DNA of 21,296 nt from a bacterium (GTDB lineage: Bacteria; Methylomirabilota; Methylomirabilia; CAVQYV01), in assembly GCA_043800755.1 (NCBI GenBank), contig JAZDMQ010000141.1:1-21296 (forward strand). Reading direction: 5' to 3'. A program made the translations under genes and the position numbers. Of the stretch, positions 301-21,233 are shown one piece after another. Numbering within the stretch: position 1 is the first letter of the stretch; every line of letters starts with the position of its first letter. Below the pieces are notes generated by a model. That model worked only from the letters and a program-made list of their open reading frames with translations. It made no database searches and had not been told where the DNA came from.

Positions 301-2001
301 ATGCGGAATGCTTTTTCGACATGCAATTATTGCGGGTGCGGCTGCGGCCTCTTCCTTATGGAGAAGGATAGCCGGATCATCGGCGTTGGGCCTTCCTTAA
401 GTCATCCGGTTTCTCAGGGCACCCTTTGTTTGAAGGGCTGGACCTCTTACCAGTATATTCATAGTCCTTCCCGATTGACGCAGCCACTCATCAGAAAAGG
501 CTCAAACCTGAAAGAGGCCACCTGGGAGGAAGCACTTTCCGCAGCGGCTGAAGGACTCAAATCGGCAAGACAGAAATTTGGCCCCCAGGCGATTGCTTTC
601 TTCGGCGCTGGAAGAGCTACCAACGAGGAACTTCTTCTCCTCCAATATTTGGCAGAAGAAGTCATTGGCACCCGCCTCATCTTTCTCGACTCCCTCTCCC
701 ACTCTCTCTCCTATAAGGACCTCTTTGATGGGAAGGTCGATCAGGCCAATATCGAGGATATTGGCGTCTCTGACTTGTTGGTCCTTGTCAACTCTGACTC
801 CAAAGAACAGCATCCGGCCTTCTCTGGGCAGGTTTGGAAAGCCCTGGATAACGGGACCAAGGTGCTTTCCTTTTCCACGCGAAGGGATCCTTTGGCCAAG
901 CATTCGCAGATCCATCTTCAAATCAGCCCCTTTACCGAAGGTGCCCTGCTGAAAGGCCTCATCAATCTCTACTTCAGTGACGAGGCTTCCCGATGGGGAA
1001 CGATTCCAGGAGTTAACGAACTGAGGGAGATGGCCAGGGATTACTCCCCGCAGCGGGTGAGTCAAATCTGTGGTATCCGAGAGGATGATTTAAGGTCTGC
1101 CTTTTCTCTTCTCAGCTCTGCCCGGGCTCCGGTGTTCATTTATCCATGGGGGAGCATGGAGGCGACGAGGGAAAAGGCTTTAATTGAGGACCTCAAGGAC
1201 TTACTGATGATGAAAGGGGAAGGAGGAAAGTTGGCCATCCTCTATCCTTCTTGCAACTCTCGGGGTGCACACCTCCTGGCCAAGAATGGAATTGGGCAGG
1301 ACCTTTCCCAAGTGAAGGTGCTTCTCCTGCTGGGGGAGCCTTATGGAGAAGATAGGAGAGCGATTCTCTCCCTCCGGGGTCGCCTGGATCTCCTCATCTC
1401 GCTTGACTTGTTCATGTCCCCCACAGCCGAGGCGGCTGATATTGTCTTCCCCAGTTCGAGCTTCGCGGAGAAGGCGGGAACCTTCACCAGTACCGAGGGA
1501 CGGATTCAAGAGATTATTCCGGCGATCGATCCCCTGAGAGGCACCAGGCCAGATGCGGAAATATTGACGAGCCTTTGTGCCCAATTGGGAGCAAAAGTCC
1601 CCTCATGGGAGGATGTCAGGAAGCAGGTGTCCCAAATCCTGGGGACCCCGGGGCCCAGAAATAGCGAGATGAGATTTGAAGCTGAGCCAGTTCCGCCCCC
1701 CCCCGAGTTGGACGAGAGCTTTCCTTTCACCTTCGTGGGGGATGCGGTCAACCTGCGCTGGCACACGGATACGAGGGTCATGAAGACTCCCATTCTGGCC
1801 CGTGAGCTATTTGAAAATTATATCGAGATGAATCTGGAGGAATTCCGGGATCTCGGTTTACGGGAGGGAATGACTGCCAAGTTCATAACCAGAGCCGGGG
1901 AGGTGGTCGCCAAAGTGAGACCGACGGAGGTCCTCAAAAAGGGGACCCTTCTCAGCTCTTACTATTCTCTCCTCGGTCCAGTGCGGGTGGAAAGGGCCTA
2001 A
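301..2001 (+). CDS. FdhF/NuoG-like molybdopterin-oxidoreductase-family Fe-S protein, probably non-catalytic
   Basis: N-terminal 4Fe-4S motif CNYCGCGC...LCLKG, then RLTQPLIRK and ATWEEAL, TNEE, ADIVFPSSSFAEKAGTFTSTEGRIQ and a C-terminal molydopterin-binding-like domain. The Mo-ligand Cys/Sec position reads Ser (LSH). SD GAGG upstream. Confidence 0.85.
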   Translation: MRNAFSTCNYCGCGCGLFLMEKDSRIIGVGPSLSHPVSQGTLCLKGWTSYQYIHSPSRLTQPLIRKGSNLKEATWEEALSAAAEGLKSARQKFGPQAIAFFGAGRATNEELLLLQYLAEEVIGTRLIFLDSLSHSLSYKDLFDGKVDQANIEDIGVSDLLVLVNSDSKEQHPAFSGQVWKALDNGTKVLSFSTRRDPLAKHSQIHLQISPFTEGALLKGLINLYFSDEASRWGTIPGVNELREMARDYSPQRVSQICGIREDDLRSAFSLLSSARAPVFIYPWGSMEATREKALIEDLKDLLMMKGEGGKLAILYPSCNSRGAHLLAKNGIGQDLSQVKVLLLLGEPYGEDRRAILSLRGRLDLLISLDLFMSPTAEAADIVFPSSSFAEKAGTFTSTEGRIQEIIPAIDPLRGTRPDAEILTSLCAQLGAKVPSWEDVRKQVSQILGTPGPRNSEMRFEAEPVPPPPELDESFPFTFVGDAVNLRWHTDTRVMKTPILARELFENYIEMNLEEFRDLGLREGMTAKFITRAGEVVAKVRPTEVLKKGTLLSSYYSLLGPVRVERA

Positions 2002-2031: not shown

Positions 2032-3141
2032 ATGGGGAGATTCCTGATGCAGAAAGAGGCGAGGATCATATCCAAATCCCATGTGCTCGAGTGGGTCAAG
2101 AACCTTCAAGGGATAGGCGAGGTAATCGGGCCGACCAAGGACCCAAAGGCTCCCACCCATGATTATGTCTTTGCCCGCCTCTCTTCCCCTGAAGAAATCC
2201 GCCTGGATTACACCCATGACCTCCTTCCCCTGAAGCGCTTCTTCTTTTCTCCCACCGAAACCCTGCTGCGATATCGATATCAGGATGGCGTTCATCTGGA
2301 AGCTGAGATTGACGAGACGAAGAGATTCTTCTTCGGAGTGCGGTCCTGTGATATGATAGGTGTTAGGTATCTTCAAAATATCTTCTCTGCCAATTATGAG
2401 GATCCCTATGTACTCAAGAAGATAGAATCCGCTACCTTCATCACCCTCGCCTGCCATACGCCACCGCTCGATACCTGTTTTTGCATCTGCATCGATGGAG
2501 GACCCTCCCTGGCTGAGGGGTACGATATTCAACTCTGGGATTTGGAGGATCGTTATCTGGTCGAGGTGGGATCTGAGAAGGGAATGGCCGCCATTTCGGC
2601 CTCAGAAGGGTTGTTCAAGGCGGCCCGAGATCAAGATTTCAGAGACCGGGAAAAGAGGCAATCCGTAACTGACCAGATGTTCAAGATCGACGCCTACTTT
2701 TCGCGCAGCATCTATCGCGTGACCACCGGAAAAGTTCCCGATGAGGTCTGGCAGGAACTGGAGGATAGGTGCTTCAATTGCGGAGGCTGCTATTACGTCT
2801 GTCCGATGTGTTATTGTTTTCAGATCATAGATTGTCCCCATTCTCCCACGGAAGGGGAGCGGCAGCGCATTTGGGATTCCTGCGTCCATGTGGGATTCCA
2901 GAGGGAGACTTCCGGCCACAACCCGCGTCCCAAGTTAGCCGAGACGATTAAGCATCGTTATTTCCATAAGATCAGCTATCAGAACTTCAAACGGGAGGGA
3001 AGGAACGGTTGTGTGGGGTGCGGCCGTTGTCTCATTGCCTGTTACTCGAATATCGATATGCCCTCCGTCTTAAGGAAGATTAGAAAAGATCAACTGACTA
3101 TGAGCTGGAAGGGTCATTTCGATGGCCATCCTCTCAAATGA
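2032..3141 (+). CDS. AsrA/sulfhydrogenase-beta (HydB)-like 4Fe-4S dicluster protein
   Basis: Motifs GVRSCD, C...TCFC, RCFNCGGCYYVCPMCYCF, RIWDSC and GCVGCGRCLIAC are characteristic of the AsrA/HydB family. Confidence 0.88.
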   Translation: MGRFLMQKEARIISKSHVLEWVKNLQGIGEVIGPTKDPKAPTHDYVFARLSSPEEIRLDYTHDLLPLKRFFFSPTETLLRYRYQDGVHLEAEIDETKRFFFGVRSCDMIGVRYLQNIFSANYEDPYVLKKIESATFITLACHTPPLDTCFCICIDGGPSLAEGYDIQLWDLEDRYLVEVGSEKGMAAISASEGLFKAARDQDFRDREKRQSVTDQMFKIDAYFSRSIYRVTTGKVPDEVWQELEDRCFNCGGCYYVCPMCYCFQIIDCPHSPTEGERQRIWDSCVHVGFQRETSGHNPRPKLAETIKHRYFHKISYQNFKREGRNGCVGCGRCLIACYSNIDMPSVLRKIRKDQLTMSWKGHFDGHPLK

Positions 3142-3153
3142 TGAGAGCCTGGA

Positions 3154-3990
3154 GTGGATGAAGTGGATAACATCTATCTCCCAAAGATAGCGAAAATCTT
3201 AGGCATCCAGACCGAGACCTCGGATGTCAAGACCTTTGTCCTCCAGTTAAAGGATGAAGGTGCGCATTCATCCTTCGATTTCAAGCCTGGACAATTCGTG
3301 GAGGTGGGAGTTTTCGGAGTGGGGGAGGTGCCCATCGGCCTTTCCTCCAGTCCCCTCCAGAAGGGATCCTTCGAAATTGCGGTGAGGGCAGTGGGGTCGG
3401 TCACCAATGCCCTCCACCAACGCTCCCCAGGGGATGAGGTCGGGATTCGGGGGCCGCTGGGCAACTCCTTTCCTTTCGAAGAGGTAATGGGAAAGGACAT
3501 CCTTTACATTGGAGGAGGAATCGGCCTCCCTCCCTTGAGGTCGCTGATCAATAGCATGTTTGAAAAGAGGCAGGATTTCGGCAAGATCACCATCCTCTAT
3601 GGGGCAAGGACTCCCGGAGACAGGACCTATAAGAAAGAGTTGGCCCAGTGGGCGGCAAGGGAAGATATCGAATTCCATGAGACAGTGGATGTGGGCGATG
3701 AGAGCTGGACAGGAAATGTTGGAGTGGTGACCACCCTGCTCAAGAAGATCAAAGTGGATCCCATAAGAACGGTAGCCTTTACCTGTGGGCCGCCTATTAT
3801 GATCAAGTTTGTGATCGAAGATCTCTTAAACTTGGGTTTTCCGGGAGAAAACATCGTTACCACTTTAGAGCGGTATATGAAATGTGGAGTGGGCAAGTGC
3901 CGACATTGCTGCATTGGCCATAAGTATGTTTGTCTCGATGGCCCCGTCTTCACCTACCAGCAGATCTCGGAATTGACCGAGAGGGTCTGA
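3154..3990 (+). CDS. AsrB/sulfhydrogenase-gamma (HydG)-like FAD/NAD(P)-binding 2Fe-2S protein (start may be GTG 3163)
   Basis: FKPGQF, GVGEVPI, RGPLGNSF, GGGIGLPPLRS, CGPPIM, and the C-terminal 2Fe-2S motif MKCGVGKCRHC...VCLDGPVF. Confidence 0.92.
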   Translation: MDEVDNIYLPKIAKILGIQTETSDVKTFVLQLKDEGAHSSFDFKPGQFVEVGVFGVGEVPIGLSSSPLQKGSFEIAVRAVGSVTNALHQRSPGDEVGIRGPLGNSFPFEEVMGKDILYIGGGIGLPPLRSLINSMFEKRQDFGKITILYGARTPGDRTYKKELAQWAAREDIEFHETVDVGDESWTGNVGVVTTLLKKIKVDPIRTVAFTCGPPIMIKFVIEDLLNLGFPGENIVTTLERYMKCGVGKCRHCCIGHKYVCLDGPVFTYQQISELTERV

Positions 3991-4013
3991 CGCCTTCTCA
4001 GGAGATTATCCCC

Positions 4014-4499
4014 TTGGAGTCGTTGGAAGAGGCCCTCAAGGAGAGGCTGAAGGGCAAAGTAACCCTGGTGGGAGTGGGCAATACCTGGAAGGGGGATGAT
4101 GGCGCGGGTCCCGCATTGGTAAGTCGCCTCCAAGGTAGAGTGCGGGCGCAACTGATCGATGCGGGGGAAGTTCCGGAGAGCTTTTTAGGCAGAATCGGGG
4201 AGACCAGCCCTGATACTATAGTTTTACTGGATGTTGCGGACTTGGGGGCTGCACCCGGAGAAATAGCCATCATTGAGGGAGAGCAGCTGAGAGATATCAG
4301 CTTTTCGACCCATCGCCTCAGCCTGGCTCTTTTGATGAAGTATTTGAAATATTCAACTGCCGCCGATGTCTTCCTTCTGGCCATCCAGCCGAAGGGCGTT
4401 GGGTTTGGGGAGAGGATGAGTCAGGAAGTGGAGGAAGCGGTAGAGGCCTTGGGAGAAATCCTGCAGAGGGCCGCCCCGATTACAGAGCCTTCATTATGA
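4014..4499 (+). CDS. hycI: Hydrogenase 3/4 maturation endopeptidase
   Basis: GVGNTWKGDDGAGP, DAGEVPE, STHRLSL and IQP motifs. The likely start is TTG 4014 behind GGAG (4001-4004), because the track start at 3930 overlaps the upstream gene. Confidence 0.9.
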   Translation: MESLEEALKERLKGKVTLVGVGNTWKGDDGAGPALVSRLQGRVRAQLIDAGEVPESFLGRIGETSPDTIVLLDVADLGAAPGEIAIIEGEQLRDISFSTHRLSLALLMKYLKYSTAADVFLLAIQPKGVGFGERMSQEVEEAVEALGEILQRAAPITEPSL

Positions 4500-4554: not shown

Positions 4555-6012
4555 ATGTCACTATCGCTGATGATTGCACTGCTTGCGTTGCCTTTCATGG
4601 GCGCCCTTCTCTCTACGCTCACCCGAGGGAGGGGTAAGGATACTCTGTCCATCCTCGTCTCCTTTGCCACCATGGTCTTGTCTCTCATAGTTGTCTTTCA
4701 ATCCCATCTGCAAAAGCTCTACTTGTCTCTCATTGAGCTTCCGTGGTTGCCATCCACTGGAAAGATCTTTGGCTTCATGATCGATCCCTTGTCATCCTTG
4801 CTGCTTTTAGTGATTACTATTATCGGTTTCTTGGTGGTCTGCTATTCTGCTAATTATTTGAGCTCCCAGAATAGAGACCACGCCACCACCAATGGGAAAG
4901 GAAGGTATTCCTTCTGGCTCTTCCTCTTCATCGGCTCCATGATCGGAGTGGTGATCTCCCCCAACCTGCTCCAGCTTTTTATCTTCTGGGAGCTTACCTC
5001 CGTCTGTTCCTGGGCCTTGATCTCTTTTTACGGAAAAGAAAAGTCCGTCTTCGCAGGGTACAAGGCACTTTTAATGACCCATCTGGGTGGTCTTTTCTTC
5101 ATGGTGGCCCTGGTTATTCAATATGTTCATACCCATTCCTTCTCCTTCGAGAGTCTGAATGGCCTGCCCGGAGGCCTTAAGACCACTGTTTTCATCCTCC
5201 TCTTGGCGGCGGCCTGGGCCAAGTCAGCACAGATTCCCTTTTACACCTGGCTTCCCGACGCCATGGAGGCTCCGACTCCCATCTCTGCTTACCTTCATGC
5301 CGCGGCCATGGTGAAGGCCGGCGTGTATCTCGTCGCCAGAGTGGTGGTAAGCACTTCCGATCTCTCCATGGTATCCGGGATCATCGTGGCGGTGATGGCT
5401 ATCGTTACCATGTTGATTGGAGTGTTTTTCTTCTTCTTTCAGGATGATCTCAAAAAACTGCTGGCCTATTCCACCATCACTCATCTCGCTTACATCCTCC
5501 TGGGGGCGGGTCTGGGCATCCTGGGTTCCGCTGTCGGCTTCACCGGAGGGATGCTGCATATCATGTGTCATGCCTTTGCGAAGGCCCTCTTATTCCTAAG
5601 TGTGGGTGCCATTGCTTATTCCACAGGAGTCAAAAGCATAAAAGAGTTAAGCGGCCTATCCAGCCGCATGCCTTTGGTTTCGGCTGCGTTTTTTGTGGGG
5701 TTGCTATCGGTCACCGGGATTCCTCCATTTTCCTGCTTTTGGAGCAAGTTTTTCCTGCTCACCGGGGCCATAAGTCTCGGAGGGTTAGCAGGATTTTTCA
5801 TATTGGTTCCATTCATTCTTGAGGCCATTGTGGCCTTTGCGTGGTTCATCAGGGTGGGACAGAACGTTTTCTTCGGGGAGGTATCGGAGAAGGCGATTAT
5901 TGCCAAAGATCCGCCCTTTCTCATGAGCGCCACCCTGATCATCCTGATGATTTTTTGTGTGCTCGCTCCGTTGATCGCTTTGCCCATCGTGCACAACATT
6001 AGAATCCATTAA
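4555..6012 (+). CDS. hyfD: Hydrogenase-4 membrane subunit D-like (NuoL/MrpA-type antiporter-like)
   Basis: 485-aa polytopic protein with FIFWELTSVCSWALISFY, AKSAQIPFYTWLPDAMEAPTPISAYLHAAAMVKAGVY and DLKKLLAYSTI. Confidence 0.85.
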   Translation: MSLSLMIALLALPFMGALLSTLTRGRGKDTLSILVSFATMVLSLIVVFQSHLQKLYLSLIELPWLPSTGKIFGFMIDPLSSLLLLVITIIGFLVVCYSANYLSSQNRDHATTNGKGRYSFWLFLFIGSMIGVVISPNLLQLFIFWELTSVCSWALISFYGKEKSVFAGYKALLMTHLGGLFFMVALVIQYVHTHSFSFESLNGLPGGLKTTVFILLLAAAWAKSAQIPFYTWLPDAMEAPTPISAYLHAAAMVKAGVYLVARVVVSTSDLSMVSGIIVAVMAIVTMLIGVFFFFFQDDLKKLLAYSTITHLAYILLGAGLGILGSAVGFTGGMLHIMCHAFAKALLFLSVGAIAYSTGVKSIKELSGLSSRMPLVSAAFFVGLLSVTGIPPFSCFWSKFFLLTGAISLGGLAGFFILVPFILEAIVAFAWFIRVGQNVFFGEVSEKAIIAKDPPFLMSATLIILMIFCVLAPLIALPIVHNIRIH

Positions 6013-6015
6013 GGA

Positions 6016-8109
6016 GTGGTGCGAGAGATGACGGCCATCCAAGTTTATATATTATCGATTCTCATCCTTTTCGTGGGAGCTATCCTCACCCTTTTCTTCT
6101 ATAAAAAACCCAGAGGAATGGGGTACTTTTCTTTCTTCTTGGTTCTGGTTTCCTCTCTCGGCATCTTTTACGTAGCAGGACAAGTTTTCCTGTATGGGCC
6201 GATCGTTACCGCCGGGACCATTTTTTCGAATGTCAAGGCAGAAAACCTCTTGGCTGTTCCCGGCTTGGGGGCGACTCTGACTTTCCGCATCGACATGCTA
6301 AGCTCTGTCTTCCTAATTCTGGTAGCTTTTGTGGGGATTTGTGCCACCCTCTACTCTATCCGGTATATGGATCTCTACAAGAAATCCAACCTCTCCGCCT
6401 ACTATCCTCCTCTCCTTGTGTTCCTGGGGGCCATGTGGGCATTGGTGGGGATGGCTGATATGTTCTTTTTCTTCATTTTTTGGGAGTTTATGACCCTGAG
6501 TTCCTATCTCTTGATCATCTTTGAAAAGGAGAAGCGAGAAAATCTGCGGGCTGGCTTCAAGTATTTCCTTATGACCCATATCGCCACCTCCTGCATGTTT
6601 ATCGGGGCGATCATGATTTATGTCCATGGCAAATCCTTCTCCTTTGAAAACCTGCGGGAGACCTTGGGTCAGCTCATGGTTTCTCACCCGAGTCTGGTCC
6701 ATCTCATCCTGGGGCTGTTCTTTATCGGATTCGCAACCAAGGCAGGCATTTTCCCCTTTGGCGATTGGTTGCCTGATGCCCACCCGGCTGCCCCCTCCGG
6801 GGTATCTGCCATCCTCTCGGGGGTCATGATTAAGATGGGGGCCTATGGGCTTCTGCGGGTATTCGTCACCATCCTGCCTACTTCCCATTACTCCTCCTCC
6901 TGGGGAGGGGTGATCGCCTTCTTTGGGGTGCTCTCTCTCTTCGTGGGGAGCCTGACCGCCCTCATACAAAAGGATTCTAAGAGACTGCTGGCTTTCTCTT
7001 CCATTGGCCAGATCGGATACATTTTCCTCGCCTTGGGAATGGGCATTGCCTTCATGCGTATCAACCCGGCCATCTCCGCTGTCGCGCTTATCGCTGGCCT
7101 CTTCCATACCGTCAATGACGCCCTATTCAAGGCTCTCCTCTTCCTCAATGCGGGATCTATTTTGTACAAAACCGGTACCCGAAACCTGAACGAAATGGGT
7201 GGGCTACATAAATGGATGCCACTCACCTATTTTGCCACCCTGATCGGATGCCTTTCTGTGGGGGGCTTTCCGCCGCTCAATGGCTTTGCCAGCAAATGGA
7301 TGATCTTTCAGACCACGATTCTTGGAGGAATCGATAGGCCAATCTATGTTTTCTTCGCCATCTTCGCGCTCTTTATTAGTGCGGTCACCCTTGCTTACGG
7401 GGTGAAATTCATGGGTTGCGCCTTTTTCGGAAAACTCCCTGATCCGCTGTTGCACAGGGTCAAATCGGATGTGCCCGCCTCCATGCAGTTTCCTCAGATC
7501 ATCCTGGCCTTATTCTGCTTTCTCCTCGGTCTTTATCCGATGCTCCCCATCTCTTTCCTTTACCAGACATTACCTGCCTTGGGGGGGAGTGTGGCTTTTC
7601 CGGCGATGACTTCACTGTTTGGAACCTCTTTTTTTGGAGTAATGATTAATTTAGGAGAGGGAATTGGTGGAGTGTATAATGCCAGTGTTTTGCTCGTAGT
7701 TTTTCTGATTTCCTTTTTCATCGCTTTCTTCCTTTATAGGGCGGGGGGGGCAAAGGTGAGAGAGGATGTCACTTGGTATTGTGGGGAGGAACACCTTCCG
7801 GCAGAGGTTCGCTTCTCCGCCGATAGCCTCTATTTGCCCTTCAAGAGGTTCTTCCGCATTCGCGTGGGACGCTATCAGCGAGAAGGCGTTTATCCCACCT
7901 TTCAGCTCCCAAAGCTCTCCTTGCCCACCCGGCTGAAGCGGATTTTCGATGTGGATGAGTACTTCTTCTATCCTATCGTGCGGGGTTCCATGATCCTTTT
8001 CAATAAATTCTCTCGTACCCATGTGGGGATACCTCAAGTTTATGTCCTTTGGATGATCGTGGGATTGATTTTGGCCATCATCGTCTTGTTTTCCCTTTCC
8101 AGTTTCTAA
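6016..8109 (+). CDS. hyfB: Hydrogenase-4 membrane subunit B-like (HyfB/HycC; antiporter-like); start may be ATG 6028
   Basis: About 697-aa polytopic protein with [67 protein letters not shown] and a C-terminal TM helix. Confidence 0.82.
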
Positions 8110-8135: not shown

Positions 8136-8186
8136 ATGTCACCAAAGTTAAAGAAAAACTTGATGCGAGAAAGGTTCAAAAAATGA
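8136..8186 (+). CDS. Possible 16-aa upstream ORF ([16 protein letters not shown]) coupled to the large-subunit start
   Basis: Strong SD GGGAGG (8127-8132), ATG 8136, and a stop TGA (8184-8186) that overlaps ATG 8183 (ATGA). Confidence 0.3.
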
Positions 8187-9859
8187 ATGCAAAAGGATTA
8201 ATGGAGAAAATTCGAGAGAGATTCAAAGAAAAGGTCCTTGAGATCGAGGAAAAGGTAGCCAACAAGATCTATATGACCGTAGAGAAGGAGGCATTGGCAG
8301 GGACCGCGAGATTTCTTTTTGAGGAAATCGGCTGCCGTTACATTGTGGGCGCGGGAACTGACAGACGTAGCGCGAATGGAGATTTCTTGGTAACTCATTT
8401 CTTTTCCTTGGACGAGGAAAAGATCTTTGTGGTTCTCCATACGAGAGTGATGGCTTCTGATCCTCAATTAGAGGTGGAGTCGATTACTCCTTTTATTCCC
8501 CCCGCCAACTTTGCGGAAAGGGAGACCTACGATCTTTTGGGGATTAGCTTTAGAGGACACCCTGATCCGAGACGCCTGGTATTGCCGGATGATTGGCCGG
8601 AAGGCCTTCACCCATTGCGTAAGGACTTTCCTCATGATTTCCGGCCAGAGCCCGTGGAAGGGCAGGCCCCCAAGCGAAATGATCCGCCCGCAGGTGCCAC
8701 GGTGCTCCCGATTGGCCCCTTCTTTACCGTTTTGGAGGAGCCCGCCTATTTTAGACTTTTTGTGGAAGGCGAAACGGTCGTAGGCTGCGACTATCGCGGA
8801 TTTTACAACCACCGAGGGATCGAGAAATTGGGCGATAGCACTTTGACTTACAATCAAACCTGCTTTCTCGCTGAGCGCATATGTGGGATATGAGGGTTCG
8901 TACACAGTACGTGTTACTGTCAAGCAACTGAAGAAGCAGCCGGAATAGAAATACCAGCAAGAGCTCGATATATCCGCTCAATTCTTTTAGAGTTGGAGAG
9001 AATCCATAGTCATATCCTTTGGCTTGGAATCGCAGGGCACATCATCGGCTTCGATACGGTTCTCATGCAGACATGGCGCATCCGAGAACCGGTGATGTGG
9101 CTCTGTGAGATGATAACTGGCAATCGTAAAAATTATGGGATGAACTTGATCGGGGGAGTAAGGAGAGATATCCCGAAAGAGATGCATCCCAAGATTCACG
9201 AGGTTATCGATAAGATTGAAGCGGAATGGAAAGCACTGATCGCTGCCATTGGTGGTGACACCCCTCTTATGATGCGCCTCAAGGATGTAGGGATTCTGAG
9301 CTATGATAAGGCGAAGTTGAACTGCGTGGTTGGACCGACCGCTCGGGGTTCCGGAGTCGGCATCGATGCGCGGTTGGATCATCCCTATGCAGCATTCGCA
9401 CAGATTTCTCCCGAGCGAAAAGTACAGCAAAGTGGGGATGTGCTGGGGAGAACGATCGTCAGACTGGAGGAAACATTAGAATCGATCAATGTGGTTCGAC
9501 GGGCCCTGAGGGAGATGCCTGAAGGACCCATAATGGCTAAGATAGACTCCGAAATTCCTCCGGGCAGAGAGGGAATATGCACGGTGGAGGCGCCCCGGGG
9601 TGAGGTCTTTCACTACGTCCTCACGGGAGAGGATAATAGACCGTATCGCTGGAAGGTGAGGGCACCCACCTTTGTCAATTTGCAGGCTGTTCCCCTCTTG
9701 ATTCAGGGTGGCACGGTATCGGATGTAACTATTTCGCTGGGAAGCATCGACCCCTGTTTTTCCTGTACGGAGCGATTGGAAGTAGTAGATCTTAAGTCAG
9801 GAGAGATGAAGGTTTATCGAAAGGATGAGATCCTTCAAATCACGAGGAGAAAAAAGTAG
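8183..9859 (+). CDS. hycE: Group 4 [NiFe]-hydrogenase large subunit (HycE/HyfG, fused NuoC+NuoD-like), 558 aa with in-frame TGA at codon 237 (candidate selenocysteine)
   Basis: Track ORFs 8183-8893 and 8993-9859 share a frame. Reading through TGA 8891-8893 gives HRGIEK...[48 protein letters not shown] with no other stop. Also present: NuoC-like [42 protein letters not shown], and DPCFSCTER followed by a cleavable-type C-terminal extension. Confidence 0.9.
8894..8929 (+). promoter_or_regulatory. Candidate bacterial SECIS hairpin
   Basis: Stem ACAGTA (8904-8909) pairs with TACTGT (8915-8920) around loop CGTGT, which has G at position 2. The stem begins at +11 after the UGA and 16 nt separate the UGA from the loop. 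A weak lower stem GTT/AAC (8896-8898/8926-8928) is possible. Confidence 0.55.
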
Positions 9860-9870
9860 GGAATGACAAA

Positions 9871-10776
9871 ATGAATATTGACTGGAAATTAGCGATCCTG
9901 AATATTGCCGTGGTCCTGCTCCTTTCCCCTCTGCTGGAGGGAGTGATTCGGAAAATCAAGGCCCGGATCCATTCTCGGATGGGCCCCCCGATTATCCAGC
10001 CCTACCTTGATCTGCTGAAGTTATTGGGGAAGGAAGATATTAAGGTGACAGACAATTTTCTGGTGAGCATTTCCCCCATGCTGGCGCTGGCGGCCGTCAT
10101 GGTCTCGAGCCTGCTGATTCCTATGGGTACAATTGCACCTCTGGGGAGTTCCGGCGACATGGTGGCCTTCATCTATTTTGTCGGACTTGCCGCGGTGGCA
10201 GTGATCTTAGGGGGCATGGCTTCGGAGAGCCCATTTGCATCGGTGGGTGCCGGTAGGGAAATGATGATCTTTCTGATTGTGGAGCCGGTCCTGTTTATTA
10301 GCCTAATTACAGCGGCCGTCAATTCCCATTCCATGCGGATGTATGATATGGTACTTTGGCATCAGGCGGCGGGGCCCAAGATCTCCATGATCATCGCCGC
10401 CATCGCCCTCTTCCTGGCCCTTCAGGCCCAGCTGGCCAAACTTCCTTTCGACATTGCCGAGGCAGAAACGGAGATCATGGGAGGTCCCTTTATCGAGATG
10501 AGCGGGCCCAAGTATGCCCTTTTCAAATGGTCTATTCTGGCGAAACAAATCATCTTTACTTCGATCTTTGTGCAGATCTTTATCCCTTGGCCCAAAACCT
10601 TCGTTTTTGCCTTTGACCTCTTGATCACCCTCGTGAAGGTCTTGGTGGTGCTATTAGTGGTATGTTTGGTCGATGTGGTGAATCCGAGGCTGCGGATTGA
10701 CCAGGCGATCGCCTATTTCTTCGGAGTAATCATCATCGCCCTGGCGGGATTGGCTTTCGCTATGGTGGGTGCTTAA
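9871..10776 (+). CDS. hyfC: Hydrogenase membrane subunit HyfC/HycD (NuoH-like)
   Basis: RKIKARIHSRMGPPIIQPYLDLLKLLGKE, KLPFDIAEAETEIMGGPFIEMSG, NPRLRID. Confidence 0.9.
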   Translation: MNIDWKLAILNIAVVLLLSPLLEGVIRKIKARIHSRMGPPIIQPYLDLLKLLGKEDIKVTDNFLVSISPMLALAAVMVSSLLIPMGTIAPLGSSGDMVAFIYFVGLAAVAVILGGMASESPFASVGAGREMMIFLIVEPVLFISLITAAVNSHSMRMYDMVLWHQAAGPKISMIIAAIALFLALQAQLAKLPFDIAEAETEIMGGPFIEMSGPKYALFKWSILAKQIIFTSIFVQIFIPWPKTFVFAFDLLITLVKVLVVLLVVCLVDVVNPRLRIDQAIAYFFGVIIIALAGLAFAMVGA

Positions 10777-10800: not shown

Positions 10801-11235
10801 ATGTTTATTAGCAAGCTAAAGGAAGCACTGATCTGTCTGAAGGCGGGCAGGGTAACCCTTCCCTATCCTTTCAAGCCTGCACCTCCCGTCCCCGAGGGAT
10901 TTCGGGGGAAGGTCGCCGTGGATGTGGAACAGTGCATCGGGTGCGGAGGCTGCGCGAATGTCTGTCCCAGCAGACTGATCATCCTTCGGGATCAAGATAG
11001 AGTGAGGACTCTGGATTTCTTTCTGGAGAGGTGCACCTTTTGTGGGAGGTGCGCAGAGGTCTGTCCGGAGGATGCGATTACGATGACGATGGAATTCGAG
11101 ACCGCTACGGACTCCGTAGAAGATTTGCACATTCACCTTGAGATCTTCATGGCTACTTGTTCCCGCTGCGGCCGCTGTTTCCCGCCGCCGAGTGCCCTCG
11201 ATAAAATGATGGTTACCGGGATGAGAACCGGCTGA
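10801..11235 (+). CDS. hyfH: 2x[4Fe-4S] subunit HyfH/HycF (NuoI-like)
   Basis: TLPYPF...GFRGK, CIGCGGCANVCP, CTFCGRCAEVCP, plus an extra C-terminal CSRCGRC. Confidence 0.88.
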   Translation: MFISKLKEALICLKAGRVTLPYPFKPAPPVPEGFRGKVAVDVEQCIGCGGCANVCPSRLIILRDQDRVRTLDFFLERCTFCGRCAEVCPEDAITMTMEFETATDSVEDLHIHLEIFMATCSRCGRCFPPPSALDKMMVTGMRTG

Positions 11236-11270: not shown

Positions 11271-11948
11271 ATGGCCAGCTACGTTACGGGAAATCTAATC
11301 ATTACCCTGATCTTGGCTCATCTCATCGCCTCGATCGCTGCGGTGGAAATTCGGAATCTCAAGGTGTCCACTTGGGCCCTTTGCATTCAATCATTGTTTC
11401 TCTGTTCCATTTTTGCCGCCTTCGCCGTCATCTCCCATAACGCGACCCTCTACTGGTGGGTCCTTTCCACTTTCGTCACCAAGGCGATCATCGTTCCTTG
11501 GATGCTCTTTCATTACATCAAAAAACTTCCAAAGTCCGAAGTGAAGCCGATCATCGGTTTTGCTGCCTCCCTTACCCTGCTCTTCGTTTTCTTGATCGTG
11601 TTCTATCGTTTCGTTCACACCCATATAGACTTTGTAGCTCCCACCCCAGAGGCGCTGATCGAACCTGCCCGGTCCTGCTTGGCCATCGCCTTTGCGATCT
11701 TCGTGTTGGGCCTTTATGTGTTGGTCGCCCGAAGGGATGCAGTCAAGATCGTCATCGGCCTCGTTTTATTGGAAAATGGTGTGCACCTGTCTTTGGTTAC
11801 CTTGGCACCAAACCTTCCCGAGACCACGGTTTTTGGCATCACCACCAATGTGATTGTAGCTGCCTTCCTACTGCTCTATCTGACGGAGCGGATGTACCGG
11901 CAACTCGGTACCACGGATACCGTGGAGCTTTCGCAGCTGAAAGGCTGA
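11271..11948 (+). CDS. hyfE: Hydrogenase-4 membrane subunit E-like
   Basis: 225-aa multi-TM protein with QS, TKAIIVP, GLVLLENGVHL and C-terminal T-D-x-x-x-L-x-x-LKG. Confidence 0.82.
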   Translation: MASYVTGNLIITLILAHLIASIAAVEIRNLKVSTWALCIQSLFLCSIFAAFAVISHNATLYWWVLSTFVTKAIIVPWMLFHYIKKLPKSEVKPIIGFAASLTLLFVFLIVFYRFVHTHIDFVAPTPEALIEPARSCLAIAFAIFVLGLYVLVARRDAVKIVIGLVLLENGVHLSLVTLAPNLPETTVFGITTNVIVAAFLLLYLTERMYRQLGTTDTVELSQLKG

Positions 11949-12008: not shown

Positions 12009-13523
12009 ATGGCGACCGATTCGATCCTGACCGTGCTGGTATTTCTTGTCCCCTTGGCCTTTGCCCTGTTGATCTTCCTTTGCGGGGGGATATCTCGGGT
12101 CTTGCGTGAAGGAGCTGCCCTGGTGGGGATCTGCTCCACGCTTGTCATATCCGGGATGATCGCCTATCGGGTCCTTAGGGGAGAGGTATTGACCTATTGG
12201 AACATGAACTTTTATGTGGATGGGCTCAGCTCTCTCATGGAGCTTCTGGGATCGGTCATGGGGGTGGTCATCATTATCTACTCTTTAAGCTATGTGAATC
12301 ATCATCCCCGCCTGGGAGACCTTCCGGAACACCGGCTCCGCCTTTACTATGGCCTGATCCTCCTGTTTCTCTCCATGATGAACTGGACCTGCGCCACTAA
12401 TAACATGATCATGCTTTATGTCTCTTTGGAGGCTACCACCCTGGCCACCGCTTTCCTGGTCACCTTCTATTGGAGGAGAGAATCGATAGAGGCGGGCTAC
12501 AAATATCTCCTTCTGGTAACAGTGGGGGTAACCTTCGCCCTTTTGGGCTGCGTGCTTATCTACTCTGCGGGCATTCCCTATCTTCCAGCGCGTAAGATCC
12601 TCCTCCTTACGGAGCTGGGAAAGATAGCGGGTAGCATACCCCGTAGCATCGTCCTTCTCGCCTCTTCCCTGATCATCGTGGGTTTTGGCACCAAGGCTGG
12701 CCTCGTTCCTTTCCATACCTGGCTTCCAGACGCTCATGCAGAGGCGCCCATCCCCGTGTCCGCTTTGCTCTCGGGGATCGTGATCAAGGTAGGGGCTTAT
12801 GCCCTGGCGAGGACCATTACGATATTTGCCCCGCGATATCCGGCCATTGTCCTATTCGTGGCAATCCTGTGCTCTTTTGGGATGCTGGTGGGTATGATCA
12901 TGGCCCTGGTTCAGGACGATATCAAGCGCATGTTGGCCTACTCCAGCGTCAGCCAGATCGCCTATGTGGTCGAAGGATTGGGGCTGGGTACCTATTTAGG
13001 GATCTATGGGGGACTCTTTCAGTTGATGAATCACACCATCATCAAAGGCCTTCTCTTCTTGACCGCGGGTTCTCTCATGTTCGCTACGGGAGAACGAAAC
13101 ATCAGCGGGCTCTCCCAGCTTCGAAAACGGATGCCCATAACCGCCTTTTGCTTCTTTGTGGGAGCCCTGTCCATCAGCGGGATGCCGCCCTTTAACGGAT
13201 TCGTGAGCAAGTTCACGATCTTTTTGGCGGTGGCCGAACAGGGGCTGCTATGGGCGGCAGTCATCGCAGTGATCACCGGATTCCTCTCCGTTGCCTGCTT
13301 TGCGAAAGCCGCCTATCTCATCTTTTGGATGACGCCAGCGGAAGGCCATGGCCATGGGGGCTCAGCAGAGCTTGCTCCCATGAAAGAACCTCCTCCTTCC
13401 ATGCTGGCAGGAATGATTTTCCTGTCAGGCCTGTGCATCCTGCTCGGAGTTTATCCTCAATTGGTTCATCCCATGCTCGATTCGGCTGCCAAGACCATCC
13501 TGAAACTCCTAGCGGGACTATGA
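12009..13523 (+). CDS. hyfF: Hydrogenase-4 membrane subunit F-like (NuoM/N/MrpD-type antiporter-like)
   Basis: LEATTLATAFLV, EAGYKY, GFGTKAGLVPFHTWLPDAHAEAP.PVSALLSG, DIKRMLAYSS, GMPPFNGFVSKF. Confidence 0.82.
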   Translation: MATDSILTVLVFLVPLAFALLIFLCGGISRVLREGAALVGICSTLVISGMIAYRVLRGEVLTYWNMNFYVDGLSSLMELLGSVMGVVIIIYSLSYVNHHPRLGDLPEHRLRLYYGLILLFLSMMNWTCATNNMIMLYVSLEATTLATAFLVTFYWRRESIEAGYKYLLLVTVGVTFALLGCVLIYSAGIPYLPARKILLLTELGKIAGSIPRSIVLLASSLIIVGFGTKAGLVPFHTWLPDAHAEAPIPVSALLSGIVIKVGAYALARTITIFAPRYPAIVLFVAILCSFGMLVGMIMALVQDDIKRMLAYSSVSQIAYVVEGLGLGTYLGIYGGLFQLMNHTIIKGLLFLTAGSLMFATGERNISGLSQLRKRMPITAFCFFVGALSISGMPPFNGFVSKFTIFLAVAEQGLLWAAVIAVITGFLSVACFAKAAYLIFWMTPAEGHGHGGSAELAPMKEPPPSMLAGMIFLSGLCILLGVYPQLVHPMLDSAAKTILKLLAGL

Positions 13524-13551: not shown

Positions 13552-14037
13552 ATGCTAAAAACCCTTTGCAGGAAAGCCTTCCCCAAGGCTCTGTGGGTCT
13601 ATCATACCAACACGGGTGCCTGCAATGGCTGCGATATCGAAGTAATTGATGTACTTACCCCATACTATGATGCGGAGAGATTTGGCATTAAACTGGTGGG
13701 TTCTCCTCGGCATGCAGACGTGTTGCTCGTCACGGGTCCAGTTACCCGCCAGGTGCTGCCAGCCCTTAAGCGACTGTATGAAGCCACTCCTGATCCGAAG
13801 CTCGTTTTCGCTATTGGAGATTGCGCAAGTGGCGGCGATATCTGGTTTGATTCCTATAGTCTTTTGGGCGGGGTCCAGAAGGCCATCCCGGTCAATTTCT
13901 ATGTTCCCGGATGTCCTCCGCGGCCGGAGGCCATCCTTTATGGTGTGGCGGTGGCTCTCGGTCTGGCACCGAAGAAAGCGGCCCCTCAAATCAGCAAGCA
14001 AGAATTTCTCAGGATGATCGAGGAGGAAGAGGTGTGA
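13552..14037 (+). CDS. hyfI: Group 4 hydrogenase small subunit HyfI/HycG (NuoB-like)
   Basis: GACNGCDIE, SPRHADVLLVTGPVT, AIGDCA and VPGCPPRPEAI; all four Fe-S cysteines are present. SD GAGG upstream. Confidence 0.92.
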   Translation: MLKTLCRKAFPKALWVYHTNTGACNGCDIEVIDVLTPYYDAERFGIKLVGSPRHADVLLVTGPVTRQVLPALKRLYEATPDPKLVFAIGDCASGGDIWFDSYSLLGGVQKAIPVNFYVPGCPPRPEAILYGVAVALGLAPKKAAPQISKQEFLRMIEEEEV

Positions 14038-19933: not shown

Positions 19934-20010
19934 GGCGGTGTAGCTCAGTTGGTCAGAGCACGCGGCTCATATCCGCGGAGTCACTGGTTCGAATCCAGTC
20001 ACCGCCACCA
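19934..20010 (+). tRNA. tRNA-Met (CAT), elongator type most likely
   Basis: 77-nt cloverleaf: acceptor GGCGGTG/CACCGCC, D arm TAGCTCAGTTGGTCAGAGC, anticodon stem CGCGG/CCGCG with CAT at 19968-19970, T loop GGTTCGAATCC, encoded CCA. The G1-C72 pair argues against an initiator tRNA; Ile2 is not fully excluded. Confidence 0.95.
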
Positions 20011-20634: not shown

Positions 20635-20896
20635 ATGCCAGAGATATGTCGATTTTATGGTATCATTATTGCCATGTTTTACGACGATCACAATCCACCG
20701 CATTTCCATGCGCGGTACGGGAAAGACAGGGGTGGCAATCGAGATAAGCTCCTTGCGAGTGCTCGAGGGGTACATTCCGCCACGAGCTCTGGGACTTGTG
20801 ATGGAATGGGCTTCTCAGCATCAGAAAGAGTTGCTCAGTAATTGGGAACTTGCGAAGAGGAGCCAGCCACCAAAGAGAATTACGCCGTTGGCGTAG
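20635..20896 (+). pseudogene. DUF4160-family protein (putative toxin), frameshifted
   Basis: MPEICRFYGIIIAMFYDDHNPPHFHARYG continues in another frame as VAIEISSLRVLEGYIPPRALGLVMEWASQHQKELLSNW...ITPLA. Removing one G from GGGG (20729-20732) restores a single ORF. Confidence 0.85.
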
Positions 20897-20906
20897 ATGG
20901 AGGTCC

Positions 20907-21233
20907 ATGATGATCCACGATGTTGTTTCTGCGTCTTACAAGGGGAAATACAAGATTCAAGTAACATTCGATGATGGGAAGGGTGGGATCGTAGATTTCT
21001 CAAAATATCTTACCAAAGGAGGCGTCTTTAACCGTTTCAAGGACATCAATTTCTTTAAGGATTTTTCGATAAACCAGGAACTCGGGGTTCTCACCTGGAA
21101 GGATGAGATAGACATCGCGCCAGAGACACTTTACGCCGAAGCCACCGGGACATCGCTTCCGAATTGGATGGAAAAGAAACGAAAACCTTCAGCGAACAAG
21201 ACACTCCAGCGGACGGCGAATAGCCGCCGCTGA
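20907..21233 (+). CDS. DUF2442-family protein (putative antitoxin)
   Basis: SD GGAGG (20899-20903). YKIQVTFDDG..GIVDF...GGVF...F...LGVLTW...IDIAPETLY fits the family, and the gene lies directly after DUF4160. Confidence 0.85.
   Translation: MMIHDVVSASYKGKYKIQVTFDDGKGGIVDFSKYLTKGGVFNRFKDINFFKDFSINQELGVLTWKDEIDIAPETLYAEATGTSLPNWMEKKRKPSANKTLQRTANSRR

Follow-up and report, generated by a model that had tools for sequence, protein, structure and literature searches.

An in-frame UGA at the N-terminal nickel-iron ligand motif of a group 4 hydrogenase from Methylomirabilota is probably recoded to selenocysteine

Introduction

In [NiFe] hydrogenases, the second cysteine (Cys) of the N-terminal ligand motif bridges the nickel and iron atoms of the active site. 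In the characterized [NiFeSe] enzymes, selenium occupies a terminal ligand position, where it raises H2 production and oxygen tolerance. Here, we analyze a stretch of 21,296 nucleotides (nt) from a genome of the phylum Methylomirabilota (GenBank assembly GCA_043800755.1, contig JAZDMQ010000141.1, positions 1 to 21,296, forward strand; referred to below as the window), in which the gene for the large subunit of a group 4 hydrogenase carries an in-frame TGA codon at the position of the bridging Cys. We consider it quite likely that this gene (positions 8183 to 9859) encodes a full-length [NiFeSe] subunit of the CXXU type (U, selenocysteine), in which UGA is recoded to selenocysteine (Sec) by the elongation factor SelB together with a Sec insertion sequence (SECIS).

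The closest described systems are the Group 4b CXXU-type [NiFeSe] hydrogenases that were reported in silico by Takano, Inoue, Aono, Ochi, and Mihara (Front Microbiol 2026;17:1925269; PMC13582414, September 2026). Among 23,473 group 4 sequences, that study found 47 nonredundant Sec-type sequences in nine phyla, 27 of them of the CXXU type, with Sec at the ligand position that bridges nickel and iron. The Group 4b genes cluster with a formate dehydrogenase (Fdh) homologue that lacks the catalytic Cys or Sec and with homologues of the beta and gamma subunits of sulfhydrogenase I (SHI), and a link to NAD(P)(H) was proposed from AlphaFold models. Sec and Cys types are phylogenetically mixed, and the G of the SECIS apical loop is supplied by the third position of a Thr ACG codon. 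UXXC motifs were found only in Group 4e of Desulfobacterota, the clearest sister pair of CXXU and UXXU genes spans two phyla, and the order of a change from CXXC through CXXU to UXXU was left unsettled. N-terminal CXXU motifs in groups 1 and 3 are credited there to Baltazar 2011. Takano et al. also point to a limit on Sec calls made in silico: tRNAs with UCA and with GCA anticodons have both been reported to recode UGA with a SECIS, and in genomes that carry tRNA-ReC, UGA may be read as Cys. Such a tRNA was present in only ∼2.3% of the genomes with non-UXXU Sec types.

An earlier note on this DNA, made from the sequence alone, had proposed a membrane-bound [NiFeSe] enzyme with a selenium bridge and had taken it to be undescribed. 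The first part is supported by the recurrence of the codon, by the ratios of nonsynonymous to synonymous substitution rates (dN/dS), and by the sel genes presented below, but the CXXU kind of group 4 hydrogenase has already been described in silico, by Takano et al.

Results

The large-subunit gene and its in-frame TGA

The gene and the codon under study are as follows (the asterisk in this and other motifs marks a TGA).

8183 to 9859, plus strand: catalytic large subunit, a HycE-like fusion of NuoC and NuoD; 558 amino acids (aa) on read-through of the UGA; motifs RICGIUGFVH and DPCFSC

8891 to 8893, plus strand: in-frame TGA codon (codon 237), in the context AERICGI*GFVHST

The TGA aligns to the second Cys of the motif RVCGICGFAHS in Escherichia coli HycE (7z0s_E), which is also the best solved relative of the 558-aa protein (E = 4e-123, 415 bits, query residues 9 to 550). 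The alpha subunit of the membrane-bound hydrogenase (MBH) of Pyrococcus furiosus follows at 272 bits, and the best NuoCD match, which has no Cys motifs, at 202 bits. Both motifs that supply the nickel-iron ligands (RxCGxCxxxH and DPCxxC) are present and align to those of HycE, one of the ligands being the UGA. The C-terminal DPCFSC is written with ordinary TGT and TGC codons, in the window and in all other carriers of the TGA, and the C-terminal UXXC that marks the canonical [NiFeSe] enzymes of Groups 1 and 3 is thus absent from this gene. Among the 13 plus-strand genes of the window that were checked, only this one has an internal TGA. TGA is the stop codon of 7 of the 15 window genes, and the genetic code is therefore unchanged.

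What the earlier note had read from this region holds. [quoted passage not shown] Pfam matches likewise recover the small subunit (13552 to 14037), the HycI-like protease (3930 to 4499), and the membrane subunits, all of which had been described as looking intact.

The use of TGA as an ordinary stop in the window also suits a rival explanation, namely, a pseudogene or a deliberately truncated gene that yields a 236-aa NuoC-like fragment, with the downstream part either untranslated or restarted from a TTG codon at 8993. A gene caller would indeed stop at 8893 and report 8993 to 9859 as a separate ORF. We compared the window with four diverged relatives (L112 to L115; 78 to 81% nt identity to the window) by the method of Nei and Gojobori (NG86), with dS at about 1 to 2. 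Upstream of the TGA, dN/dS was 0.050, 0.071, 0.034, and 0.065 for L112, L113, L114, and L115, respectively; downstream, it was 0.069, 0.046, 0.035, and 0.059. Purifying selection is thus equal on the two sides, with the downstream range (0.035 to 0.069) matching the upstream one at near-saturated dS, a result that speaks against truncation. From the UGA to the TTG at 8993 there are 33 codons, among them the one for the His of the N-terminal motif, and this segment is conserved in frame. A restart at the TTG would remove part of the active site. As the same arrangement is also kept in eleven diverged lineages (see below), we regard a pseudogene or a truncated product as very improbable.

The TGA in independent assemblies

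The source of the window is a draft assembly of 166 contigs, which leaves room for a TGC or TGT miscalled as TGA. The stretch occurs, whole or in part, in 20 sequencing runs from 19 studies, and we examined the Logan contigs (rather than raw reads) of four of these runs, two from DNA and two from RNA libraries, which belong to three studies. Zero variants were listed at 8891 to 8893 in the contigs of the four runs. The codon is bridged, to more than 31 letters in either direction, by three contigs (X3 record 21, X14 record 2, and, from an RNA library, X18 record 17). The two RNA-library runs (X17 and X18) show coverage gaps and depth-0 bins, to which we attach no weight. Two metagenome contigs with 99.8% nt identity to the window (L110 and L111) also have TGA, as do the diverged L112 to L115. 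A sequencing or assembly error is, on these grounds, scarcely credible.

Recurrence of the TGA among relatives

The codon recurs at the same column in relatives of the gene. The scan of genome contigs returned 48 loci, 28 of which have the N-terminal motif: five carry TGA at the window's column (L053, L054, L056, L059, and L074), one carries it at the first Cys (L071), and 22 have Cys at both positions. The scan of metagenome contigs returned 49 loci, 32 with the motif, which divide into 11 with TGA at the window's column and 21 with Cys at both positions; two of the 11 (L112 and L115) have TGA at the first Cys as well. Counting the window, the 17 carriers (16 loci plus the window) represent 11 lineages at less than 90% nt identity. 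Their neighbors in the tree have TGC or TGT. Within the genome's own class (60 genomes), four genomes (G047, G059, G001, and G052) have a hydrogenase-type gene with the motif, all of the Cys type, at no more than 53% identity, and these distant homologues say nothing about whether the TGA is conserved; the 25 further loci from this search were NuoCD-like. Nothing stated here draws on two genomes of the search that are marked as unpublished (G030 and G039).

The carriers fall into two well-supported Sec clades, and an approximately unbiased (AU) test leaves a model with a single clade unrejected (P = 0.32). The stem nucleotides of the hairpin described below are identical in both clades. Together, the common stem and the AU result mean that an ancestral Sec with later reversions fits as well as repeated gains do. 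The window's own clade comprises five lineages at 78 to 87% nt identity, with a support of 100 in the Shimodaira-Hasegawa-like approximate likelihood ratio test (SH-aLRT). In this clade, CXXU genes (the window, L113, and L114) are mixed with UXXU genes (L112 and L115) at 85 to 88% protein identity. The UXXU genes, at 86 to 87% protein identity, read ERI*GI*G (L112:2194-2253 and L115:1183-1242) and have the same downstream hairpin as the other carriers.

The locus with a TGA at the first Cys alone (L071:3518-3600, on contig CAZXGR010000039.1 of a metagenome-assembled genome) is HycE-like and of the UXXC type, reading ERI*GICGFSH. It groups with formate hydrogenlyase (FHL)-type genes labeled as Campylobacterota. 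Its TGA is followed by a hairpin of different sequence (stem GCACGC/GCGUGC, loop GGUC), and its genome contains tRNA-Sec and selB. When 40 relatives of its genome were searched for this gene, the only matches were two at 36 to 37% identity, neither with a stop, which leaves it a singleton.

A conserved SECIS-like hairpin downstream of the UGA

A hairpin lies downstream of the UGA, and SelB-dependent recoding would depend on it.

8900 to 8925, plus strand: SECIS-like hairpin, from the RNAalifold consensus of 11 carriers

Its upper stem pairs 8904 to 8909 with 8915 to 8920 (ACAGUA/UACUGU), and two lower pairs join 8900 and 8901 to 8924 and 8925. The loop (8910 to 8914) is CGUGU, with G in second place, and the 6-bp stem starts 10 nt after the UGA; the consensus of the carriers is a 6-bp stem with a 5-nt CGNNN loop. 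This G comes from the third position of a Thr ACG codon. The codons that form the hairpin (CAC AGT ACG nnn TAC TGT) are invariant in all 11 carriers, while synonymous sites elsewhere are near saturation.

For comparison, 18 Cys-type genes of the same clade were chosen, more distant genes being omitted, along with L118 and L126 as apparent copies of L052 and L117. When 17 of these genes were scored in the same register (the incomplete L140 was left out), none could form all six pairs, the best reaching five (L116); the carriers formed six of six in 11 of 11 cases. The Ile codon that adjoins the UGA (8888 to 8890) is also distinctive, being AUA in 11 of 11 distinct carriers and in 1 of the 18 Cys-type relatives, which mostly have AUC. 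This preference 5′ of the UGA may reflect a codon-context constraint on recoding.

Selenocysteine machinery and an additional tRNA

The genome (2.43 Mb in 166 contigs, scored as 100% complete) contains the means to insert Sec: tRNA-Sec(UCA) (75 bits), selB (371 bits), selA (568 bits), and selD (394 bits). The selD gene (contig C131, 8011 to 8934) has an in-frame TGA of its own at the known Sec/Cys position (GAG*ACK) and is thus of the Sec type. The hydrogenase maturation genes hypD and hypF are found elsewhere in the genome. Both tRNA-Sec and selB were present in all five other carrier genomes examined.

The same genome also contains an extra tRNA (contig C141, 4264 to 4359, minus strand). This tRNA has a length of 96 nt, the anticodon GCA, a long variable arm, U as discriminator base, and an encoded CCA end; against the Rfam model of tRNA-Sec it reaches 55.9 bits, where the gathering score is 47. 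A normal 76-nt tRNA-Cys(GCA) is present as well, so the long tRNA is an addition to the ordinary set. By the three rules of Takano et al. (a length of 80 nt or more, an anticodon of UCA or GCA, and U as discriminator), we class it as a putative tRNA-ReC (selC*)-like tRNA. A review (PMC10778597) makes no mention of tRNA-ReC. The neighbors of the C141 tRNA are cupin, DsrE-like, and ABC ATPase genes, and the neighborhood gives no functional lead.

Because the genome carries this tRNA, insertion of Cys is the main rival to insertion of Sec. The UGA would then be read through the hairpin and SelB all the same, with Cys delivered by the C141 tRNA(GCA), either always or at low selenium, and the product would be an ordinary [NiFe] enzyme. 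Reports that UCA and GCA types both recode UGA with a SECIS (PMC13582414) make this conceivable, as does the presence of the long tRNA beside a regular tRNA-Cys. Yet a GCA anticodon would lack canonical pairing to UGA, and the genome has kept tRNA-Sec(UCA), selA, and a Sec-type selD, so that Sec insertion is available. Furthermore, the other four CXXU genomes examined, which have the same UGA and hairpin, show among the best matches listed for the tRNA-Sec model only tRNA-Sec and ordinary tRNA-Ser. SECIS-directed Cys insertion, which the earlier note had raised as an alternative, thus remains a live competitor but ranks below Sec insertion, and we judge it unlikely for the window gene.

The tRNA-Sec and the tRNA-ReC-like tRNA in one genome, taken together with the shallow clade in which CXXU and UXXU genes are mixed, suggest a further and rather speculative scenario. 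The window's lineage might have been caught in a stepwise change from CXXC through CXXU to UXXU, with ligands that are Sec or Cys according to selenium supply. We hold this to be doubtful; if true, it would mean a facultative selenium/sulfur active site in an energy-converting hydrogenase.

The hydrogenase operon and other features of the window

The large-subunit gene is accompanied by the following genes.

301 to 2001, plus strand: Fdh-like molybdopterin-oxidoreductase subunit, 566 aa (Pfam Molybdopterin, Molybdop_Fe4S4, and Molydop_binding)

2032 to 3141, plus strand: SHI beta-like Fe-S subunit (Pfam Fer4_22; sole match in the Protein Data Bank [PDB] 9nez_B, E = 1.7e-42)

3154 to 3990, plus strand: SHI gamma-like FAD/NAD(P)-binding subunit with a 2Fe-2S domain (Pfam NAD_binding_1, FAD_binding_6, and DHODB_Fe-S_bind)

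3930 to 4499, plus strand: HycI-like hydrogenase maturation endopeptidase (Pfam HycI, residues 65 to 177, E = 5.7e-16)

4555 to 6012, plus strand: antiporter-like membrane subunit (Pfam Proton_antipo_M and Proton_antipo_N)

6016 to 8109, plus strand: antiporter-like membrane subunit (Pfam Proton_antipo_M and Proton_antipo_N)

9871 to 10776, plus strand: HycD/HyfC/NuoH-like membrane subunit (Pfam NADHdh)

10801 to 11235, plus strand: HycF/NuoI-like subunit with two [4Fe-4S] clusters (Pfam Fer4 families)

11271 to 11948, plus strand: HyfE/NuoK-like membrane subunit (Pfam Oxidored_q2)

12009 to 13523, plus strand: antiporter-like membrane subunit (Pfam Proton_antipo_M and Proton_antipo_N)

13552 to 14037, plus strand: small subunit, HycG/NuoB-like (Pfam Oxidored_q6, E = 7.5e-30)

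The large subunit thus has as operon partners a small subunit, an NADHdh and an Oxidored_q2 protein, three Proton_antipo_M genes, and a HycI protease. The only structure matched by the product of 2032 to 3141, 9nez_B, is subunit beta of sulfhydrogenase 1 from P. furiosus, and the top PDB match of the product of 3154 to 3990 is its gamma counterpart (9nez_C, E = 1.7e-63).

The Fdh-like subunit reads SLSHS where two solved Fdh chains (7qv7_S and 9t1s_L) read RLCHA and RLXHS (X, Sec), which places Ser at the catalytic Sec/Cys position. A catalytically competent Fdh, with Sec or Cys as the molybdenum ligand, is required for FHL-1 and FHL-2, and the Fdh-like subunit of the window operon has neither residue there. 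The complex is therefore probably not a true formate hydrogenlyase, and the hydrogenlyase flavor of the earlier reading does not hold. The His that follows the replaced residue and the N-terminal 4Fe-4S domain of this subunit are kept despite the Ser. The subunit may serve in electron transfer or as a scaffold, or it may act on another substrate. In line with the proposal of Takano et al., the input or output of the complex is likely NAD(P)(H).

The longest HycI-like ORF shares 61 nt (3930 to 3990) with the end of the SHI gamma-like gene. Its Pfam match does not set in before residue 65, and the protease probably has its real start downstream of 3930. Farther along the window, a tRNA-Met(CAT) (19934 to 20010) lies downstream of carA and is followed by small ORFs, including a DUF2442 gene (20850 to 21233). 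An Rfam scan of the window returned one tRNA and nothing else.

Discussion

A model of the enzyme and the evidence for it

We observe the codon, which recurs at a single column, selection on both of its flanks, a conserved hairpin, and the sel genes together with Hyp genes; from these we infer the insertion of selenium, its place between the metals, and the role of the complex. According to our model, the large subunit would be made full-length and would sit in a membrane-bound, complex-I-like group 4 hydrogenase, with the UGA at codon 237 recoded as the hairpin at 8900 to 8925 recruits SelB carrying Sec-tRNA(Sec). The Sec would replace the second Cys of the N-terminal CXXC, i.e., the ligand that bridges nickel and iron. 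Encoded in the operon along with the hydrogenase are an NAD(P)H module of the sulfhydrogenase type and an Fdh-like subunit that no longer has its catalytic Cys or Sec. Such a complex would couple H2/H+ to NAD(P)(H), perhaps with a third partner, more probably than it would split formate.

Several points weigh against this model. We know of no experimental demonstration of selenium in any group 4 enzyme and of no group 4 Sec enzyme that has been purified. There is no covariation in the hairpin, as all eight pairs are invariant in the 11 carriers, and when the window is folded by itself (8885 to 8960 and 8891 to 8930), the minimum free energy (MFE) structure is a different one that does not stand out from shuffled sequences (z = 0.44 and 0.02). 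With no covariation and an undistinctive single-sequence fold, the support for a SECIS reduces to the conservation of synonymous sites. The TGA itself is backed by assembled contigs only, and contigs from RNA libraries are no proof of transcription. The tRNA-ReC-like tRNA keeps Cys insertion in play, and the function assigned to the complex is a prediction from its gene content.

On the other side, those checks suggested by the earlier note that could be made by computation all support Sec insertion: the TGA persists in the contigs of four runs, though these are not raw reads; counting the window, 11 lineages carry it at this column, and their sister sequences have Cys; selA, selB, selC, and selD are all in the genome; and dN/dS does not differ between the two flanks of the codon. 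Recoding to Sec therefore remains the explanation that we favor.

Selenium at the nickel-iron bridging ligand of a complex-I-like, ion-translocating hydrogenase would be chemically unusual. The window offers a well-supported natural example, with a SECIS-like hairpin, Sec and Hyp genes, contigs from RNA libraries that cover the gene, and close UXXU relatives. As gene callers split such genes, the family is undercounted in databases. To what has been described, the window adds the close mixture of CXXU and UXXU genes, a tRNA-ReC-like tRNA in a CXXU genome, the common stem of both Sec clades, and the singleton L071.

Comparison with known hydrogenases

In Groups 1 and 3, the canonical [NiFeSe] hydrogenases (Hys of Desulfovibrio and Desulfomicrobium; Fru and Vhu of methanococci) resemble the window enzyme in that one Cys ligand of nickel is replaced by Sec, encoded by UGA and served by Sec machinery. 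They differ in the ligand concerned, which, according to PMC8020662 and PMC13582414, is the first C-terminal Cys, a terminal nickel ligand beside the proton-relay Glu. They are also periplasmic or cytoplasmic enzymes, soluble or of the uptake type, whereas the window encodes a complex-I-like membrane complex.

An engineered enzyme has Sec at the same position as the window's. As reported by Evans et al. (PNAS 2021; PMC8020662), the C79U variant of E. coli Hyd-1, with Sec in place of the N-terminal motif's second Cys, was assembled and active, retaining 13% of native H2 oxidation, the highest value of four single Cys-to-Sec variants. By analogy, this activity makes Sec at the window's position mechanistically plausible. 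Hyd-1 is an O2-tolerant uptake enzyme of Group 1, in which Sec was introduced artificially at UAG via EF-Tu, and in both respects the window gene is different.

HycE of E. coli FHL-1 (PDB 7Z0S and 7Z0T) shares with the window's large subunit the NuoC-NuoD fusion, both nickel-binding motifs, a C-terminal extension that follows DPCxSCT(D/E)R, and a protease of the HycI type. It has Cys at all four ligands, however, and the Sec of FHL-1 resides in FdhF, not in the hydrogenase. The window operon departs further from FHL-1 in the Ser of its Fdh-like subunit, its NAD(P)H-type module of SHI beta and gamma homologues, and its three antiporter-like subunits.

The likeness is closest to the Group 4b CXXU enzymes of Takano et al. 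(PMC13582414). In both cases, Sec is predicted at the second N-terminal Cys, with ordinary Cys throughout the C-terminal motif; the cluster combines large and small subunits with HyfE-like, HyfC-like, and several antiporter-like subunits; and it includes an Fdh-like subunit without the catalytic Cys or Sec as well as SHI beta and gamma homologues. The loop G in an ACG codon, the clade of mixed Sec and Cys types, and the co-occurrence of selABCD are likewise common to the two. We see no difference in kind between these enzymes and that of the window, and the matching cluster, motif, and SECIS details suggest that the latter belongs to subgroup 4b. Two contrasts are found at a finer level: tRNA-ReC, rare in the non-UXXU Sec-type genomes of Takano et al., has a likely counterpart in the window's CXXU genome, and the CXXU and UXXU genes of the window's clade, at 85 to 88% protein identity, are far closer to each other than the members of the cross-phylum CXXU/UXXU pair of that study.

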